Shown piece after piece: positions 16,557 to 24,523 of a stretch of DNA of 64,000 nucleotides. The stretch comes from Thermoanaerobaculia bacterium (lineage in GTDB: Bacteria; Acidobacteriota; Thermoanaerobaculia; Multivoradales; UBA5704), in the NCBI GenBank assembly GCA_035556715.1, contig DATMER010000074.1:3737-67736 (forward strand). The letters are read 5' to 3'. A program made the translations under genes and the position numbers. The notes beneath the pieces were generated by a model that ran no database searches, was not told where the DNA came from, and saw only the letters and a program-made list of their open reading frames with translations. Each line of letters begins with the position of its first letter. Within the stretch, counting starts at the first letter, position 1.

Positions 16557-19031
16557 CTACGCCCCCTTGAGCGCCACCGTGGGATTGAGCCGCGCCGCCC
16601 GGCGGGCCGGGAGATAGCAGGCGATCAGGGAGACCAGGGCCAGGATCACGGGCACGGCCACGAAGCTGAGCGGATCGGTCGCCTCCACCCCGTAGAGCAT
16701 GCCGGCGACGGTGCGGGTCAGGGCCAGCGCGCCCGCCACCCCCGCAATCACCCCCCAGGCCACAAGCGCCATGCCCTGGCGCACCACGAGCCGCTGCACG
16801 TCCTGCGGGCGGGCGCCGATCGCCATGCGGATGCCGAACTCCCGCCCGCGCAGGCTCACCGAGTAGCTCAGGAGGCCGAACAGGCCCACCACCGCCACGC
16901 CCAGCCCGAGCAGCGCGAAGAGGCCGGCGACCTCGGCGTACATCCGCTGCTCGGCCAGGCCATTCGCCATGTGCTCGCGGCAGCTCACCAGGCTCACGAC
17001 GGCCAGGTCCGGATTGGCTTCCAGGAGCGCCCGCCGCAGCGCCGGGGTCAGGGTGGCCGCGGGCGCGGCCGAGCGCACCAGTAGCGTCATGCGCGGGTGG
17101 TTGCGCTGCCCGCTGGAGAGGTAGATCACCGGCTCCGGCTCCTCCATCAGCTTCGTGCGGACGTCCTTCGCCACTCCCACCACCTCGAAGGGCTTCTCCG
17201 CGACCTCCGGGGCGGCCAGGTCGACCAGGCGCAGGAGGCGGCCGACGGCGGGCTTCTCTCCCCAGAGCTTCTGCGCCATGCCGCGGCTCACCACCACCGC
17301 CCGCGGCGCGTCCTCGCGGTCCCGCTCGTCCAGGGCCCGTCCGGCCAGGATCGGGATGCCCACGGTCTCGAAGTAGGCCGGCGCCACCGAGTTGAAGGCG
17401 ACCTCGGTCTGCTCGTCCTGGCGGTCCAGGCTCGCGGCCAGCAAGGTCCGCGTCCACCCCGCGACCGGCAGGACGTGGGCCAGGCTCGCGGAGGCCACGC
17501 CGGGGGTCTCCCTCGCCTCGTCCAGCACCCTCTGATAGATGTTGGCGCCGCCCTCCCCCTCCATGACGTTGCGCGGGATGTTGACCGTGACCAGGAGCAG
17601 TCCGTCAGGGTCGAAGCCAGGGTTCACCCCCTGCGCCTGTCCCAAGGTGCGGACCAGCAGGCTGCCGGTCAGGAGGAGGAGGACCGACAGGGCGACCTGG
17701 GCCACCACGAGGACCTTGCGCGGCGCGAGGCCGCTGTGACCTCCTCCGGAGCCGCTCGCCGCGGCGTCGCTCTTGAGGGGGCCGAGGAGATCCCCGCGCA
17801 TCACCCGCAAGGCCGGGCCGAACGCGCCGAGGAAGGCGCAGAGCACCGTGGTGAGCGCGGCGAAGGCGGCGATGCGGCCGTCGACCTGCAACAGCCGAGT
17901 CCCCGCGGCCCAGTCGCCCAGGCCGCTTGGCGAGGTCATCACGTAGGACTCGATCCTCTGCCCGAGGACGGCGGCCACGCCCAGGCCCAGCACCCCGCCC
18001 ACCAGGCAGAGCACCAAGCTCTCGGCCATCACACCGGAGAGCAGCCAGGCCCGGCTGGCGCCGAGCGACGCCCGGATCCCCCACTCCCGCTGCTTCGCGA
18101 TGGCCCGCGCCAGCAGCAGGTTGGCGATGCTCACGCACGCCAGGAGCAGGAAGGCGGAGGCCACGCCCATGAGCATGCGCGTCCGGTCGAGCCACTCCGG
18201 GTCCCCCCACCCGGGGTCGTACTCGCCAAACAGGACCACGTCCATCCGGCGCGGCTTGGCGTCGGGAAGCGGCACCGCGGCGTCGAGCGACCGGCCGAGC
18301 ACGTCCAGCGCGGCCTGCGCCTTCTCCCGGCTCACCCCCGGAGCGAGGCGGCCGGTGAGGTTCAGCCACTGGGCGTCGCGCTCGTGGAGCCGCGACGTCG
18401 CGGTCATCCGGTCCGTCAGGTTCGCCGGCACGTAGATCGCCGAAGCCAGGTTCGCTCCCTGGAAGCCCTCGGCGGCGACGCCGACCACCATCACGGCCAC
18501 GCCGTTGATGCGCAGCTCGCGTCCCACGACGTCGGGGCTCCCGCCCAGAGTGCCCTGCCAGAAGCGGTGGCTGAGGACCACCACGGGCGGTGCGTCCGGC
18601 CGGTCGTCCGCGGGCTGAATGAGCCTGCCCATCGTTGGACGGGTGTTGAAGAACCCGAAGAAATTGCCCGTCACCAGCCCGCCCCAGGCGAACGAGGTCC
18701 GCTCGCCCTCGGAGATGGAGGCGCCGAAGCGGGACGTGCCGACGAGGTCCACGACGGCTGTCTGGCTCTTCAGGAAATCCTGGTACTCGAGGTAGGAGAT
18801 GGCCCTGCGCGGCTCCTCCTCGGTCCCGGAGTAGACCGAGACGACACGCTCGGGGTGGGGAGCATCGATCGTCGGCCAGAGGAGCGCCGCCAGGTAGGCG
18901 AACAGGGCTGTGTTGGCCCCGATGCCGAGCGCCAGCGTGAGCACGGCCGGCAGCATCACGGCCGGCTGGCGGGAGAGCGACCGGAAGGCGGTCGAGAGCT
19001 GTCGCACGGCATCGCGCATGGGAACCTCCAA
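16557..19031 (-). CDS. ADOP-family ABC transporter permease (duplicated MacB-like periplasmic domain + FtsX permease)
   Basis: 824 aa. N-terminus MRDAVRQLSTAFRSLSRQP..LTLALGIGANTALF; two FtsX-like 4-TM modules (second ends LPARRAARLNPTVALK[GA]); no cognate ATPase adjacent. Confidence 0.8.
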   Translation of the reverse strand: MEVPMRDAVRQLSTAFRSLSRQPAVMLPAVLTLALGIGANTALFAYLAALLWPTIDAPHPERVVSVYSGTEEEPRRAISYLEYQDFLKSQTAVVDLVGTSRFGASISEGERTSFAWGGLVTGNFFGFFNTRPTMGRLIQPADDRPDAPPVVVLSHRFWQGTLGGSPDVVGRELRINGVAVMVVGVAAEGFQGANLASAIYVPANLTDRMTATSRLHERDAQWLNLTGRLAPGVSREKAQAALDVLGRSLDAAVPLPDAKPRRMDVVLFGEYDPGWGDPEWLDRTRMLMGVASAFLLLACVSIANLLLARAIAKQREWGIRASLGASRAWLLSGVMAESLVLCLVGGVLGLGVAAVLGQRIESYVMTSPSGLGDWAAGTRLLQVDGRIAAFAALTTVLCAFLGAFGPALRVMRGDLLGPLKSDAAASGSGGGHSGLAPRKVLVVAQVALSVLLLLTGSLLVRTLGQAQGVNPGFDPDGLLLVTVNIPRNVMEGEGGANIYQRVLDEARETPGVASASLAHVLPVAGWTRTLLAASLDRQDEQTEVAFNSVAPAYFETVGIPILAGRALDERDREDAPRAVVVSRGMAQKLWGEKPAVGRLLRLVDLAAPEVAEKPFEVVGVAKDVRTKLMEEPEPVIYLSSGQRNHPRMTLLVRSAAPAATLTPALRRALLEANPDLAVVSLVSCREHMANGLAEQRMYAEVAGLFALLGLGVAVVGLFGLLSYSVSLRGREFGIRMAIGARPQDVQRLVVRQGMALVAWGVIAGVAGALALTRTVAGMLYGVEATDPLSFVAVPVILALVSLIACYLPARRAARLNPTVALKGA

Positions 19032-19048: not shown

Positions 19049-19579
19049 TTGCCGACGTATTGTAGAGCAGTGAACGCCAAGCTCTCGCGCCGGTTCGTCC
19101 TTTCTACGCTTCTGGGGGTGCTCGCGTTTGCCCAGGGCGAGCCCGCCAGCCTCGGGAAGGCCGACCGCATCCTGATCCTGAAGTCCGAGCGCAAGCTCAC
19201 GCTCTACCGTGAAGGCAGTCCCCTGAAGACCTACCTCGTGGCACTCGGCGGCGCCCCGGTCGGGGACAAGCAGTGCCAGGGGGACCAGCGGACGCCCGAA
19301 GGGACCTATCGGATCGAGCTCAAGAACAAGGCCTCCCGCTTCCACCTCTCCCTGCGGGTCTCCTATCCCGACGCCACGGACCGGGCCGAGGCCAGGAAGC
19401 GAGGCTGCTCCCCCGGAGGCGACATCATGATCCACGGCCTGGGCAAAAGCTTCGCCCACCTCGGAAAGCTCCATCGCGCCACGGACTGGACGCTGGGCTG
19501 CGTCGCCGTCACCAACGAGGAGATCGAGGAGATCTGGGCGGCGGTCGAGGTGGGGACGGCCGTGGAAATCCGGCCGTAG
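19049..19579 (+). CDS. L,D-transpeptidase (YkuD family)
   Basis: Signal peptide; catalytic DIMIHG ... TLGCVAV (His/Cys) motif. Confidence 0.75.
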   Translation: MPTYCRAVNAKLSRRFVLSTLLGVLAFAQGEPASLGKADRILILKSERKLTLYREGSPLKTYLVALGGAPVGDKQCQGDQRTPEGTYRIELKNKASRFHLSLRVSYPDATDRAEARKRGCSPGGDIMIHGLGKSFAHLGKLHRATDWTLGCVAVTNEEIEEIWAAVEVGTAVEIRP

Positions 19580-19586
19580 GCTTCTC

Positions 19587-19929
19587 CCCGGGAGCGCCGG
19601 CATCCTGCCGGCATCTTTTCCCTTCCAAACGCCGGCTATGGCCCGGCTCCCAGTCGTACAACGCGCAATCGCCGCGGCTGAGCTGTACGCAACGGGTACG
19701 ACCCGTACCCGGCGCGCACGGCCCACACGCGAAGGGGACGACTCGTATCCGACGGGTAGGGCCTCGTACCCGCAGGATACGGCTCGCCCGCGCAGGTTAC
19801 GCCTCGTACGCGAAGGGTAGGGCTTCCTACCCGGCGCGTACGCTTCGCCCCCGAAGGTTACGGCCCGTTCCCCCGATGGGGAGGCGTTCCCCAACGAGTA
19901 TGGCCGGCAGGATGCCGGCGCTCCCAGGG
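19587..19929. repeat. ~340-bp hairpin-rich element bounded by 26-bp inverted repeats
   Basis: Boundary repeats CCGGGAGCGCCGGCATCCTGCCGGCAT (19587-19612) and its inverse (19903-19929). Interior has several perfect 7-8-bp palindromes (CGGGTACG-ACC-CGTACCCG, CGTATCC...GGATACG, GGGTAGGGCTTCCTACCC). Confidence 0.5.
19596..19619 (+). terminator. Rho-independent terminator
   Basis: GCCGGCATCCTGCCGGC perfect 7-bp stem followed by ATCTTTT, 17 nt after the L,D-transpeptidase stop. Confidence 0.6.
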
Positions 19930-19960
19930 AAAAGAGCGCTTCCGATGAGCTGTTTCCTGG

Positions 19961-20029
19961 GCGGGCGGTGGCGCCCCTCGCCCGGGGCGGGCGTGCTCGG
20001 GGGACCGGGAGAGGGGACGGGGGTGAGGG
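19961..20029. repeat. Palindromic repeat family, partial copy B
   Basis: Right half GGGACCGGGAGAGGGGACGGGGGTGAGGG plus the inverse of the copy-A internal segment; overlaps the 3' end of the STAND gene. Confidence 0.55.
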
Positions 20030-20031
20030 CC

Positions 20032-22889
20032 CTACCCCACCGCCCCCTCCAACCACCGCACCTCCCGCTCCCGCCGTCCATACCCGGTCTCGTTCACCAG
20101 CTCCCGCGCCCGCGCCACATGCCGCCGCGCTTCGGCGAGATCCCCCTGGTCCCGGCAGAGGCGCGCCCACTCGAGGTGCGCGTCGCACTCGTACAGGCGC
20201 ATCGGGCCGCGCTCGGCGATTTCCAGGGCTTCGTTGAGGTCAGCGGCGGCGCCGGCAAAGTCAGAGCAAAAGCGCCGGAGGGTGGCGCGAGCCAGGAAGC
20301 CGCGGGGCAGATCGTCCTCCTGGCTGGCCCGCCGCAGGCCGTCTACCGCCTGGTCCAGTTGCTCGGCGGCTTGAGCGAGCCCGGCGGCGCGGTCTTCCCC
20401 AGTGGCTGCCGGCTGAGGGGCTGTCAGAGCCAAGCCGAGGTGGGCGCGGCCCAGGGTAAGGTCGTCGAGGGCAGTGCTGAGGAGCGAGTACCAGCTTTTT
20501 CCATACTTCAGCGTCTGCCTCGCCCGCTCCAGCACCTCCCGGCAGGCCTGTCGGAACCGCTCCACCTCCTCCAAGCGGGAGCCCACCCCGGCGAGCCCAT
20601 CCAGACCGGCTCCGACCTCCGGCTCCGACCGGCCCAGCAGCAGATCGCAGTACCGAAAACCCCCTTGCGAAGCGAGCGGGGGGTACTCCGGCTGCCGCTC
20701 CGCATGCATCGCCTCGGCCTCGCGGAAGGCCGCCGCGCTCTCCTCCCACCGGCCCGCTTGGTTCAGGGCGTCGGCCCAGGTCGTCCGATTGACAATCCGC
20801 TGAAAGGCATCGCCGCTACGGTCGGCCAACTCGACGCTCTGCTCGCCGAATGACATGGCGCGCGGCACGTCCCCTAGGGTCAAGGTCAGCTCGCTGAGGT
20901 TGCTGCCGATGATCGCGGCGTTCTTCCACTTCTCCTGAGCGATGCGCGCCTCCAGACTCACCTTCATCGGCTCTATCGCCTCCGCCAAGCGGCCCAGGGC
21001 GCGGAGGACGATGGCGGCCTCGTTCAGGATGAACGCCTGATCCGCTGCGGTAACGTGGGCGGAGGGCTGGGACCAGGGGCGATCGAAGAAGCCCGCCAGC
21101 GCCGTCAGCCCCGAGCCGAAGGCTCCGAGCTTCCTCAAACTGAAGTGCTCGTTCCCCCGCAGGATCCGCCGCCAGTAGACTTCGTCCATTGCCTCCTGCA
21201 GCCGCCCCGCCCGACAGCCGTGGATGATAGCGGCGTAGAGGGGTTGCATCGCTTCTAGGGTGTCAGGAAGGTCCGGTGCTGCCTGGCGCAGGTGCTCGTA
21301 GAGGCGCCGGTTGCCTTCCTGCCAAGCGTCGGAGCGGTGGCTCTCGAGTTCCTCCGCGAAGCAGGCGCGCACCAGGGGATGAGCATCGAGGGTCTCCGGC
21401 TCGCGCGCGTCGGCCGCCGCCAGCAGACCGTGATCCCGCAGGGTGGCGATGGCGAGCCGCCAGTCTTCGTCCGAGAGGCCCACCAGGGGCTCCGTAAGCC
21501 CTGGGATCGGCGGCACGGCACGCAGGGCCTTCAGGACGTCGGCCTCCGCGGGCCGGTCGAAGAGGCCGAGGAGACGGAGGATCGCGAGCTCTGGACCCTC
21601 TCCCAGCCAGTGGGCGTAGGTGGCGATCACATGGAAGGCGCGGCCGCCCTGTTTCTCGTCGGCCCGGTGGAGATCGATCTCCCGCCGCTTGCGGATGTCG
21701 CCGCCGTGGGCCCGGCGAAGGAAGTTGCCGAGAAGGGTCAGGGTGAGGGCGTGTCGCTTGAAGTCCTCGGCTGCGGCGCGTAGCTCGCTCTCCCGGCCAT
21801 TCACGCCGAGTTGGCGAAGAAGATCCACCGCAGCGCCAAGCTCTAGTTCCTCCAGGGGGATCTGCGATGCCGTGCTTGGGGAGCCGGAGAGGTCGGCGAT
21901 CCGTTCCCGGGTGGTAACCACGCAGAGGCCCGGGTTGCCCGCGGCAAGACTCTTGAGGAGGGCGGAGAGGCCGGGGTCCTTGAGGCGGCCCTCGATCTCC
22001 GGCCGGCCCGGCGGGTATTGCAGGGGCTCGACACCGTCGAGGACGAGCAGAGAGCGCTCCTTCCTGATGAGTCCTGCGAGGCGGGCGCCGCGGTCGTGAA
22101 GGGAGACGGCCTTGGGGTCGGGATCACCGAAGAAACGGAGGGCGTGGTCGATGAACGCTCGGCGGAGGTGTTCTGGTCTTTGCTCCCCTGGCTGTAGAAC
22201 GACCAGTCCAGCACCCGCACGGCCCCGCGCCAGCCCTCGGCCGCCATGCGGTCCATCCAGCGGGCGACCAGCGCCGACTTGCCGACGCCCCCGAAGGCCA
22301 CCAGGGTGAGGACGTGGATGGTTGGGTTCTCCCAGGCTGCATCCAGCCGGGCGATCTCTGCCTCCCGGCCGACGAACTTCGAGCCGGGGATGGGTAGACG
22401 GCCGGTGTCGAGGAGGGGACCCGGGTAGGGGGGCGCCGGGCTCGTGGAGGACGCCGTTGGGCCGGGAAAAACGGGTTGCTGCGCCGGCTTGGGTCGGTCG
22501 TCAGAGACCGCGGTGAGCACGGCCGCCTTGGCCACGTCGGCAGGCAGCCCCACCAGATCGGCATAGATCAACGGCTTGAGCAGTCCGGTGGGTGAGCACG
22601 GCGCAACCCGCAGAGGGATCAATTTGCGGTCCTCGCCACGGGGATCCTGCGCGAAGGCAGCAGCCCATTCCGGCTGGGTGTAGTCGGCCTTGAGGTAGTT
22701 GTCGGTCAGGACCACCACCGTCTTGCGTGTCTCGCCGGCCGCCTTCTGCATCTCCAGGACGAAGTTGCCACCAGGCCGGAAGTCCCACGGCTGATAGACC
22801 ACCTGATAGCCCGCCTCTTCGAGCATCCAGGCGATCCAATCGGCCCACGCCTTGTCGGCACTATTGAAGCTGACGAAGAAGTCTTTCAT
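20032..22889 (-). pseudogene. TIR - NB-ARC (STAND P-loop NTPase) - TPR protein, apparently frameshifted
   Basis: Frame A (22889 to ~22170): bacterial TIR domain then Walker A VAFGGVGKSALVARW. Frame B (~22200 to 20032): Walker B LLVLDGVEP, RNBS-B GLCVVTTRE, GLPL-like ALTLTLLGNFL, then TPR repeats. The two frames overlap near 22160-22200. Confidence 0.65.
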
Positions 22890-22922
22890 CGAGTTCCCAG
22901 ACTCGTTCGACGGCGCCGCGTG

Positions 22923-23330
22923 CTACGACTGGGAGGTCCAGTCTTCGAGGGCTATTCCAAGGCCCGTGAAGTGCCGGGTGTTGTTCGTCACAAGCGTAGC
23001 GTTCCACTTCCGGGCCAGTGCGGCGAGCAGGAGATCGGGATCGGAAATCCCTTGGCCAGACCGGTGCCGCTCCGCCCAAAACCGGGCCGCCTTATCCCAA
23101 TCCTCGAACGAGGGCTCGCAACGCTGCCACGTGGCCGTCAACTGCTCGTAGAGCCGGAGGAGCCGGTATGCCCCTTTCAAATGGAGGTAGCGGGTCAGCT
23201 CGTAGTGCGCAACGGAAGCGAGGAGGAACGACTTCCCCTGCCGCACGGCCTCATCCAACTTCGCAGGCACTGGGGGAACGTTCTTCAGGATGTAGCTGAG
23301 CGTATTCGTATCGAGGAGAAGGACGCTCAT
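22923..23330 (-). CDS. vapC: PIN-domain ribonuclease toxin VapC
   Basis: LLDTNTLSY N-terminal Asp motif and LVTNNTRHF C-terminal motif; 135 aa. Confidence 0.85.
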   Translation of the reverse strand: MSVLLLDTNTLSYILKNVPPVPAKLDEAVRQGKSFLLASVAHYELTRYLHLKGAYRLLRLYEQLTATWQRCEPSFEDWDKAARFWAERHRSGQGISDPDLLLAALARKWNATLVTNNTRHFTGLGIALEDWTSQS

Positions 23331-23629
23331 CAGTCCTCTTCTGTCAGGCTTGCGAAGCGGATCGGATGCTCGTCCCGAAAGGTCTCGAATGCGCCAAGGA
23401 CCTCTTCCTCCTCAGGCGTGAGCTGCACGGAGCGCAACTCGGCCAGCGCAGCAAGCGTCCGTTGCTGGGCAGAGAGATGAGCTGCTGGGCTCAGTTGTGC
23501 GTCACCTGCCGGCCGATGCGTGAGGACAATAACTTCGGCAGGCCCCTCCGGAAAATCGTCCGGGAGCCGAACCTCGACTCGATGGTCTTCTTGGATCGTC
23601 ACCTTCAGCTTATGAGCATGCACGGCCAA
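23330..23629 (-). CDS. vapB: VapB-type antitoxin
   Basis: 99-aa acidic protein directly upstream of vapC with a 1-nt overlap; C-terminal EEEEVLGAFETFRDEHP tail. Confidence 0.6.
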   Translation of the reverse strand: MAVHAHKLKVTIQEDHRVEVRLPDDFPEGPAEVIVLTHRPAGDAQLSPAAHLSAQQRTLAALAELRSVQLTPEEEEVLGAFETFRDEHPIRFASLTEED

Positions 23630-23740
23630 GCCCTCCGTTACAACTACAATTGTAAACGCATCTGCCTTTAGCAGCGGGAGCCTGCTGCCTGAGTCGTAAA
23701 TGCCGGAGGCACTCGGGTGGCTGCCCGAGGATTCAGGCCC

Positions 23741-24523
23741 TCACCCCGCGAACCACTTCACCGCCTCCTTAGCAATGTCCGGAGGCACCGTGTGCGGGCC
23801 GTCGAACTCCCGGTAGAGGACATCGTAGCCCGCGTTCTTGAGCTGCGGGACCAGCTTGCGGCTGCAGCGGTCGATAGAGAGCACCTGGTCACCCGTGCCG
23901 TGGGAAACGTAGATCTTCGGCTTCCCCCGCTGGTCCTTCGGCACCATGAAGCCGGGCGAGAGGGCGATCACGTGGCTGAAGAGGTCGCCGTTGGTGATCC
24001 CGATCGAGAGCGCGTAGGAGGCGCCGTCCGAGAAGCCCTCGGCCGCGATGCGCTTCGGGTCCACGGCGCAGCGGGCGAAGGTGTGCTCCAGGGCGCGGTC
24101 GAGGAAGGCGATGTCCGGACCGTAGCCCCCTTCGAGGACGTCCCAGGTCTGCCCCCGGGAGTCCGTGGCCAGGAGGATCAGCCCGGCCTCGTCCGCCAGG
24201 TTCTGGAAGGGTCCCAGGGCGCGGCGGGCGCTCCCTCCCGCGCCGTGCAGCATCACGGCGAGCGGGGCGGGACGGTCCGCCTTGTAGCCCTTGGGCACGT
24301 AGAGGACGCCGTCGCGCCGTCCGCCCAGCCCGAGCTCGTGCAGCCCCGGCTTCGCCTCTTCCATGGGAGCCCCGGGGCGGGCCACGAGCCGCGCTTCGGT
24401 GGCTGTCGATGGCAAGGCATCCCCCTTCTTCTTCGCGTTCTGCGCGTTCTGCGCGGACAGCTGGCGCGCCGCCGCAAGGCCCAGGAACGCCATGGAGAGC
24501 AGCTCGCGCCGAGTCATTTCCAT
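23741..24523 (-). CDS. Secreted alpha/beta-hydrolase (phospholipase/carboxylesterase or PHB-depolymerase-like esterase)
   Basis: Tat/Sec-like signal MEMTRRELLSMAFLGLAAA; nucleophile elbow GFSDGAS; HGTGD His region; 260 aa. Confidence 0.7.
   Translation of the reverse strand: MEMTRRELLSMAFLGLAAARQLSAQNAQNAKKKGDALPSTATEARLVARPGAPMEEAKPGLHELGLGGRRDGVLYVPKGYKADRPAPLAVMLHGAGGSARRALGPFQNLADEAGLILLATDSRGQTWDVLEGGYGPDIAFLDRALEHTFARCAVDPKRIAAEGFSDGASYALSIGITNGDLFSHVIALSPGFMVPKDQRGKPKIYVSHGTGDQVLSIDRCSRKLVPQLKNAGYDVLYREFDGPHTVPPDIAKEAVKWFAG

Follow-up and report, generated by a model that had tools for sequence, protein, structure and literature searches.

The question raised by this locus is whether a predicted immune gene is broken in the organism or only in its assembled sequence. 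In a 64,000-nucleotide (nt) stretch of a soil Thermoanaerobaculia bacterium (Acidobacteriota; assembly GCA_035556715.1, contig DATMER010000074.1; hereafter the window), three-frame translation of the minus strand from 22889 to 20035 revealed a coding sequence for a 952-residue protein with a TIR domain, a STAND nucleoside triphosphatase (NTPase) and tetratricopeptide repeats (TPRs), once its reading frame was repaired. The listing of open reading frames (ORFs) contained a 348-residue ORF (22889..21843) and a 629-residue ORF (21921..20032) in different frames of this strand. An initial annotation had interpreted this layout as a TIR-NB-ARC-TPR gene, preceded by a vapBC pair and split by a frameshift between the P-loop and Walker B that reflected either a sequencing or assembly error or genuine pseudogenization. 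The evidence presented below indicates that a lineage-specific TIR-STAND-TPR family under birth-and-death turnover has probably lost the function of one copy, that in the window, through a real and very recent mutation.

Frame 1 of the minus strand starts with the ATG at 22889 and reads MKDFF...TIR...GGVGKSALVARW...VLDWSFYSQGSKDQNTSAE, followed by low-complexity sequence rich in Ser, Pro and Arg. This frame is meaningful up to ...SKDQNTSAE, with GAG 22160..22158 as its last good codon. Frame 3 is open from approximately 22500 and sense resumes in it at 22155 as FIDHALRFFGDPDP, from where the order is FIDHALRFFGDPDPKAVSLHDRGARLAGLIRKERSLLVLDGVEP...VVTTRER...HALTLTLLG...DAHPLVR...TPRs until the stop codon at 20034..20032. 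A single frame break separates Walker A (GGVGKS) from Walker B (LLVLDG). As originally annotated, the TIR domain and Walker A are in one frame, while Walker B, the TTR motif, a GLPL-like motif (HALTLTLLG) and the TPRs are in the other. Pfam searches with the two parts matched TIR_2 and, weakly, AAA_16 in the first and TPR_12/TPR_2 in the second. Past the break, frame 1 adds 104 out-of-frame residues before the stop at 21845..21843, which results in the 348-residue ORF. GC contents at the three codon positions were 0.49/0.85/0.74 in this tail versus 0.66/0.50/0.85 in the genuine part.

When the repaired 952-residue sequence was used as a query in a protein search, 3,658 proteins were retrieved at E<=1e-10. 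Best matches were intact proteins of 945-964 residues, with 74-82% identity and 100% query coverage, from metagenome-assembled genomes (MAGs) of Thermoanaerobaculia and from soil metagenomes. DNA comparison with 25 relatives showed GAG CCN TTC (E-P-F) in all of them, with CCG in 16, where the window reads GAG CG TTC. A 1-nt deletion at 22156/22157 has thus reduced the codon of Pro245 from CCG to CG, with one C lost; on the plus strand, GAACGCTC occurs in place of GAACGGCTC. In a protein alignment, all eight closest homologs showed the junction ...SKDQNTSAEPFID[HY]ALRFFGDPDP, in which the Pro is invariant. The check by homolog alignment proposed in the initial annotation thus pinpointed the indel to the missing C of this codon. 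Since the repaired protein aligns end to end with intact homologs and the frame switch coincides with an invariant Pro, the frame pattern cannot be attributed to chance. In a structural model of a homolog, the break maps to the segment that links the second beta strand of the nucleotide-binding domain to the next helix.

The position of the break was refined relative to the initial annotation, in which the frames met at 22160-22200, near an AAAGACCAGAAC run. The break lies 3-4 nt outside this interval but inside the 22140-22220 region proposed for resequencing. The run (22181..22170) is indeed close, with the break 13 nt to its 3' side, but the lesion is not within it. A scan for terminator-like structures identified an imperfect inverted repeat, GAACGCTCGGCGGAGGTGTTC (seven pairs, including G-T; plus strand 22153-22173), that spans the deletion site. 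Its location is probably coincidental, although a deletion by slippage might in principle have been promoted by such a repeat.

Apart from this lesion, alignment of the gene with its closest homologs showed no gap or stop with majority support. The further downstream stops and indels that the initial annotation had named as a sign of a true pseudogene were therefore absent from this alignment. The only other length difference was in a variable linker of the TPR region, where 7 residues are inserted. At 374 positions with at least 90% conservation, the repaired protein showed nine misses, while intact homologs showed a median of 13 (range 2-45). Invariant positions were retained upstream (25/25) as well as downstream of the break (109/110), with the conservative substitution L613V as the single exception. 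This lack of a second lesion, together with retention of conserved residues, indicated that the deletion, if real, is recent. Analysis of the window by tblastn matched the gene to itself only, without a paralog that might complement it or act as a recombination donor, and a sigma-70 promoter scan of 19500-24000 did not yield a site.

The exact 348-residue frameshift product, including its nonsense tail, is recorded in four sources (NCBI, JGI/IMG, Logan, and ENA). The NCBI entry, HWM92103.1, is a 'TIR domain-containing protein' of a Thermoanaerobaculia MAG, whose neighbour HWM92102.1 is the 598-residue C-terminal half. The JGI/IMG copy is located on a 208,348-nt contig, the Logan copy in the assembly of SRR7976076, and the ENA copy on a 75,740-nt contig (ERZ27251540, k141_3212413). 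In two of these sources, the ENA MEGAHIT contig and the Logan assembly, the break was confirmed at the DNA level. The Logan contig was 100% identical to window positions 20002-23632 (3,631 nt), while the ENA contig showed one single-nucleotide polymorphism (SNP) in 21,047 nt (position 18501; G in the window, C in ENA). The SNP falls in a MacB/FtsX-type permease gene. Based on aligned coordinates, the window runs approximately 2.5 kb beyond the end of the ENA contig, which indicated that it originates from yet another assembly and that at least three separately built consensus sequences contain the deletion.

The k141 contig name identifies a MEGAHIT short-read assembly (de Bruijn graph), and the SMAG soil catalogue, from which related MAGs originate, was built with Illumina reads and MEGAHIT (PMC10640626). 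The sequence context of the break is non-repetitive, with no homopolymer of four or more nucleotides within 28 nt. Presence of the same break across assemblies, in such a context, weighs against assembler or homopolymer errors as its cause. An intact allele from the same species was not found: the best intact protein match was 82% identical, a scan of JGI metagenomes with a junction pattern that allowed both forms yielded two relatives only, both intact and with 83-84% nucleotide identity, and a scan of GTDB genomes yielded no locus at 100%. With the break shared by these assemblies, the deletion is likely to be a true mutation rather than an assembler artefact.

The annotated architecture of TIR domain, STAND NTPase and TPRs was consistent with Pfam matches (TIR_2, TPR), sequence motifs and the fold of a homolog. 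TIR_2 scored 107 bits (Pfam cut-off 28), and E74, in the motif YTQPEW, aligned with the Glu of WPQKEL in PdTIR (3H16), the position of the catalytic residue of TIR NADases. Walker A (pattern GxxxxGK[ST]) and Walker B (pattern hhhhD), on opposite sides of the break, are invariant in the family alignment, and TTR (residues 326-328) and D-x-HPL (residues 502-506) are invariant or nearly so. NB-ARC is defined by a TTR-type motif with the sensor-1 Arg and by a His that is conserved where the winged-helix domain ends. The designation 'NB-ARC' was supported by the motifs GGVGKS, LLVLDG, TTR, and HPL and by the fold of the homolog, but not by Pfam, in which NB-ARC (PF00931) gave no match at E<=1. Sub-threshold Pfam matches of the NTPase were AAA_16 (E 1e-5; 26 bits versus a cut-off of 32.6) and NACHT (E 0.015). 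A sequence-profile search of the PDB with the family profile returned TIR chains only and nothing for the nucleotide-binding region. PADLOC v2 models showed matches at the TIR level only and none at E<=1 for the NTPase-TPR body (no Avs, bNACHT or other STAND), while NCBIfam indicated a weak similarity to the TPR region of AfsR. Literature searches on SRR7976076 and on TIR systems of Thermoanaerobaculia did not yield relevant reports.

Fold comparisons were performed with an AlphaFold model of the closest intact homolog, P0001, which is 82% identical to the repaired window protein. The model, with a mean pLDDT of 74 overall and above 90 in the TPR part, comprises a TIR domain (residues 1-130), a Pro-rich linker, a P-loop alpha/beta, helical and winged-helix region (approximately 160-540) and a long helical-repeat domain. 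In a Foldseek search of the PDB, the best match was an archaeal STAND protein with TPRs (6MFV, E 1.7e-9), followed by Apaf-1 (3SHF), RPP1 (7CRC), and CED-4 (2A5Y) at about 1e-5 to 1e-4; the TPR region matched LGN-type TPRs and MalT domain III. According to the predicted fold and the motifs, the protein is AP-ATPase/NB-ARC-like. PH0952-type archaeal STAND proteins with a TPR sensor (6MFV) and AP-ATPase/NB-ARC proteins (Apaf-1, CED-4, plant TIR-NLR RPP1) were thus its best structural matches. With these proteins it shares Walker A, Walker B, TTR, and a His-containing winged-helix motif in the same order and, with plant TIR-NLRs, the succession of TIR and nucleotide-binding domains. It differs from them in a sequence too distant for Pfam NB-ARC or PDB profile matches beyond the TIR, and in a sensor that consists of TPRs rather than LRR or WD40 repeats. 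The TIR_2 domain, with a conserved Glu in the W/Y-x-x-x-E position, resembles bacterial TIR NADase effectors (PdTIR 3H16, AbTIR). Unlike these, it is fused to a STAND-TPR module instead of being standalone or part of a Thoeris-type operon, and its NADase role is putative.

In the Avs paradigm, effector-STAND-TPR sensors oligomerise on binding phage proteins (PMC13581612), and the TIRs of Avs proteins are treated as NAD+-depleting effectors (10.64898/2025.12.03.692087). The window family resembles Avs/AVAST systems in its single tripartite polypeptide with a swappable N-terminal effector, here TIR, a conserved NTPase-sensor body and a TPR-like helical sensor (PMC13581612), and ligand-induced oligomerisation would by analogy be expected to activate the effector. 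In contrast to Avs/AVAST, its body lacks a matching Avs or other STAND model in PADLOC v2, its sensor is unusually conserved (approximately 80% identity between paralogs with different effectors), its TIR can occupy either terminus and its range is essentially Thermoanaerobaculia/Holophagales. The architecture suggests that the protein works as an Avs/NLR-type sensor (PMC13581612, PMC8195603), with any membership of a named defence family being putative; an anti-phage role of the family is likewise suggested by architecture only.

The protein is best explained as one copy of a Thermoanaerobaculia family of immune-sensor type, in which a single polypeptide has a TIR effector at the N-terminus, an AP-ATPase/NB-ARC-like STAND switch in the centre and a TPR sensor at the C-terminus. 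If the intact protein works as Avs/NLR proteins do, its TPR region would recognise a trigger, for which a phage protein is the most likely candidate. Nucleotide exchange and oligomerisation of the NTPase would follow, and the TIR domains brought together in this way, which retain the catalytic Glu, would degrade NAD+ and abort infection. Translation of the window copy would, as a consequence of the deletion, yield the 348-residue product, consisting of the TIR domain, half of the nucleotide-binding domain and a nonsense tail of 104 residues. For the remainder of the protein (Walker B, sensor-1, winged helix and TPRs), the first in-frame start occurs only after Walker B, and the allele would be null.

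A scan of GTDB genomes identified 46 loci of the family, with up to five per genome. All but one were in Thermoanaerobaculia, Holophagales or other Acidobacteriota MAGs, the remaining locus being in a Rhodospirillaceae MAG. The NTPase-TPR body (approximately 60-80% identical) was joined to an N-terminal TIR (two subtypes), a C-terminal TIR, XRE-HTH, a protein kinase, SEFIR, PF13749, or no recognisable domain, and in some copies the same TIR subtype, up to 90% identical, was at the C-terminus instead of the N-terminus. Such domain-shuffled copies are found at loci L017, L020, L022, L036, and L045 and among proteins P0006, P0007, P0010, P0031, P0062, P0086, P0102, and P0108. Tandem paralogs occur at L020 and L030. 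Short-read assemblies contained frame-switched copies (L009, L044, L052) as well as remnants consisting of the C-terminus only (L048, L050, L051, L054). An independent frameshift was found in a vapBC-linked TIR-STAND gene (L056 7786-10655; JGI 3300049002, Ga0494386_0000666), in which the frame switches inside the TIR (…ISADFL / SDFIRGTEVP…) to give a 97-residue TIR ORF and an 846-residue body (P0051). Frame switches were also present in MFD nanopore-derived MAGs (L039, L041, L043, L049), where they may represent long-read errors. P0115 (L041, 1032 residues) is a read-through translation with long out-of-frame stretches rich in Arg, Pro, and Gly. High GC content keeps wrong frames open, which leads to chimeric 'proteins' in databases. 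Neighbourhoods of two homologs, P0003 and P0008, were unrelated in a synteny comparison. The swapped effectors and the tandem and broken copies fit a birth-and-death turnover, and with this pattern a genuine knockout in the window is unsurprising.

Of the two origins of the frameshift offered in the initial annotation, artefact and pseudogenization, both still hold as alternatives, and four assemblies with the same product lean against an assembler artefact. If the lesion were an artefact, the gene would be intact in the organism and the missing C would be an error carried into all public records from the same reads. A single lesion in a perfectly collinear gene, without loss of conserved residues, is what such an error would produce, and every record is a metagenome assembly that may share underlying samples. 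However, the identical break was obtained from four pipelines, with differing assemblers and contig boundaries, and two consensus sequences that are told apart by one SNP elsewhere both carry it. Moreover, these are short-read data, the local context is merely a CC dinucleotide, and consensus-level indels outside homopolymers are rare in data of this type. An artefact is therefore considered unlikely. Some observations nevertheless weigh against a real and recent loss of function. Absence of a second lesion and of relaxed conservation is equally expected of an artefact in an intact gene, and the protein, JGI metagenome, and GTDB searches provided no intact same-species allele for comparison. 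The four records may all stem from one or two read sets, which would allow for a systematic error or a mix of minority and majority alleles. As to the putative anti-phage role, PADLOC has no model for the NTPase-TPR body and, with the exception of vapBC, the immediate neighbours of the gene are of housekeeping type. Readings in which the broken frame is itself functional fared less well. A programmed -1 ribosomal frameshift or transcriptional slippage could restore the full-length protein of a functional, regulated gene, and a -1 slip would have the right direction to correct the change (frame 1 to frame 3). However, neither an X XXY YYZ heptamer nor a homopolymer occurs near the break (22100-22260 searched), only approximately 6 nt are available in which a slip could restore both conserved flanks, and in each of the 25 relatives the junction is read in one frame through a Pro codon, which leaves no conserved recoding signal. 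The absent slippery heptamer and the single-frame relatives effectively refute recoding, which retains almost no credibility. Also highly improbable is a functional split system in which the 348-residue TIR fragment and a C-terminal sensor fragment with its own translation start act as two proteins. Gene callers do report two ORFs (348 and 590/598 residues) and L056 is likewise divided into a TIR ORF and an 846-residue body. However, the cut in the window runs through the nucleotide-binding domain, and frame 3 is without a start before GTG 21921, which is located after Walker B and thus precludes an NTPase-competent second polypeptide. Furthermore, the 104 last residues of the first ORF are out of frame, with abnormal codon-position GC, and the different location of the break in L056, inside the TIR, indicates that there is no conserved split point.

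An alternative to the proposed function, rather than to the mutation, is that the family does not sense phages but consists of STAND regulators of signalling or cell death for other conflicts or regulation, similar to MalT/AfsR-type or 'multicellular bacteria' conflict systems, in which case the broken copy would be silent on phage defence. Consistent with this alternative, PADLOC gave no match for the body, NCBIfam showed the weak similarity to the AfsR TPR region, some paralogs have HTH or kinase N-termini, and AP-ATPase-TPR proteins with variable effectors have been described as general conflict systems (PMC8195603). However, the TIR domain keeps its catalytic Glu, and the family shows features typical of immune loci, namely effectors exchanged on a constant body, expansion to many copies, copies in decay, and a link to toxin-antitoxin genes. 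A role outside phage defence is accordingly regarded as doubtful, and the loss of one copy of an Avs/NLR-like sensor gene remains the preferred interpretation of the window.

The vapBC pair reported immediately upstream of the TIR-STAND gene was corroborated. The 135-residue ORF 23330..22923 is a PIN/VapC protein according to Pfam (PIN, 31.1 bits versus a cut-off of 23.6), with an NCBIfam VapC match (E 2e-10) below the cut-off of that model. The 99-residue vapB-like protein has 83 homologs of 59-127 residues, most of them 85-110. Judged by this sequence conservation it is a real conserved gene, with a putative role as antitoxin. Gene callers of ENA (101 residues, 23366..23671) and Logan (89 residues) instead annotate a plus-strand ORF that overlaps the minus-strand vapB-like gene. 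As in type II VapBC systems, the gene for a PIN toxin follows a small gene, and the stop of the latter shares 1 nt with the toxin start. The pair differs from these systems in its putative antitoxin, whose family is unannotated and has no counterpart in Pfam, NCBIfam or PADLOC, and in that the pair is recurrently, but not always, located beside STAND-TPR immune-type genes.

Adjacency of vapBC and STAND genes on the same strand was observed at loci L015, L019, L028, L051, L056, L057, and L059/L060. The order vapB-vapC-STAND on one strand was shared by the window, L015, L056, and L057. In L019, L028, and L051, vapBC directly followed the STAND stop; the homology blocks of L019 and L051 abut within 1-2 nt. 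STAND sequence was present on both sides of vapBC in L015 and L051. For the vapB-like/vapC pair (window 22923-23655), amino-acid identities in the STAND-linked loci were 66-92% for VapC and 54-85% for the VapB-like protein. Among three VapB-like loci picked regardless of STANDs, one precedes another kind of effector-STAND-TPR protein, with DUF4062 (a TIR-like NADase domain), while unrelated genes follow the other two (L058, L061). An obligate coupling was rejected based on these two loci, which have no STAND neighbour; the linkage of vapBC and STAND genes is frequent, not obligate. It is conceivable, but rather improbable, that vapBC and the effector-STAND-TPR gene form a modular cassette with coupled functions, of the layout [vapBC]-[swappable effector]-[constant STAND-TPR body], sometimes in tandem with the 3' end of the body abutting the next vapBC. 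In such a cassette, the toxin-antitoxin pair would stabilise or regulate the immune gene and the recurrent frameshifts (window, L056) would represent a common, possibly selectable off-switch for a costly or autoimmune copy.

In the region 19620-23330, GC contents at third codon positions (GC3) were 0.84-0.85 for the TIR-STAND gene and 0.79 for vapC (overall GC 0.62), versus 0.88-0.95 for flanking genes. A segment that is accessory or moves horizontally would fit this weaker bias. Use of a GC3 phase plot to detect frameshifts or gauge assembly quality was rejected as too noisy, given the GC3 of 0.84-0.85 in the gene versus 0.88-0.95 in its neighbours. The TIR-STAND gene is followed by approximately 450 nt of apparently non-coding sequence (19580-20031). 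Elsewhere in the window, gene calls from the ENA contig (L006) showed a class II lanthipeptide-type cluster on the minus strand (approximately 11843-16413), beside a MacB-like permease. Its members, all on the minus strand, are a 78-residue ORF, a LanM-like synthetase (1064 residues, DUF4135 and LANC_like, approximately 12875-16069), a 57-residue ORF, and a C39-peptidase ABC transporter. Coordinates of the features of the TIR-STAND gene and of vapBC are compiled in Table 1.

Table 1. Features of the disrupted TIR-STAND-TPR gene and the adjacent vapBC pair (window coordinates; residue numbers refer to the repaired protein).
Feature	Coordinates	Strand	Evidence or remark
Whole disrupted TIR-STAND-TPR gene	20032..22889	minus	952 codons if repaired; stop 20032-20034 included; collinear with intact 945-964-residue homologs
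TIR domain, residues 4-115	22545..22880	minus	Pfam TIR_2, E 1e-30
Putative catalytic Glu74 in YTQPEW	22670..22668	minus	Aligns with E of WPQKEL in PdTIR structure 3h16
Walker A / P-loop GGVGKS, residues 200-205	22275..22292	minus	Invariant among 47 sequences
Frameshift site, 'CG' for Pro codon CCN	22156..22157	minus	One C gone (G on plus strand)
Out-of-frame tail of 348-residue ORF, 104 codons and stop	21843..22157	minus	Abnormal codon-position GC; product recorded as HWM92103.1
Walker B LLVLDG, residues 281-286, frame 3	22033..22050	minus	L281, L284, D285, G286 invariant
Sensor-1-like TTR, residues 326-328	21907..21915	minus	T326, T327 invariant
HPL motif, end of winged-helix region (MHD-equivalent), residues 504-506	21373..21381	minus	H504, P505, L506 invariant
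C-terminal all-helical TPR-like sensor region, residues ~545-952	20035..21258	minus	Pfam TPR_12/TPR_2; model of homolog P0001; TPR fold matches
vapC-like PIN toxin gene, 135 residues	22923..23330	minus	33 nt upstream of TIR gene ATG; Pfam PIN
vapB-like small gene, 99 residues	23330..23629	minus	TGA stop overlaps vapC ATG by 1 nt

On its own, inactivation of one copy of a bacterial NLR/Avs-like gene is a routine case. It does expose an annotation problem, in that 104 out-of-frame residues end the 348-residue 'TIR domain-containing protein' of NCBI, JGI, and ENA, while the C-terminal half of the gene is filed as 'hypothetical' and neither is marked as a pseudogene. Potential novelty resides only in the modular arrangement of vapBC, effector and STAND body and in its recurrent inactivation. 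The family to which the gene belongs is large (over 3,600 proteins at E<=1e-10), has no PADLOC class and represents an expansion of TIR/kinase/HTH-STAND-TPR proteins in soil Thermoanaerobaculia. Its effector shuffling, tandem duplication, and frequent decay resemble the birth-and-death evolution of NLRs in plants and animals, and its recurrent link with an unannotated VapBC-like module points to a possible role of that module in stabilising or regulating immune genes.

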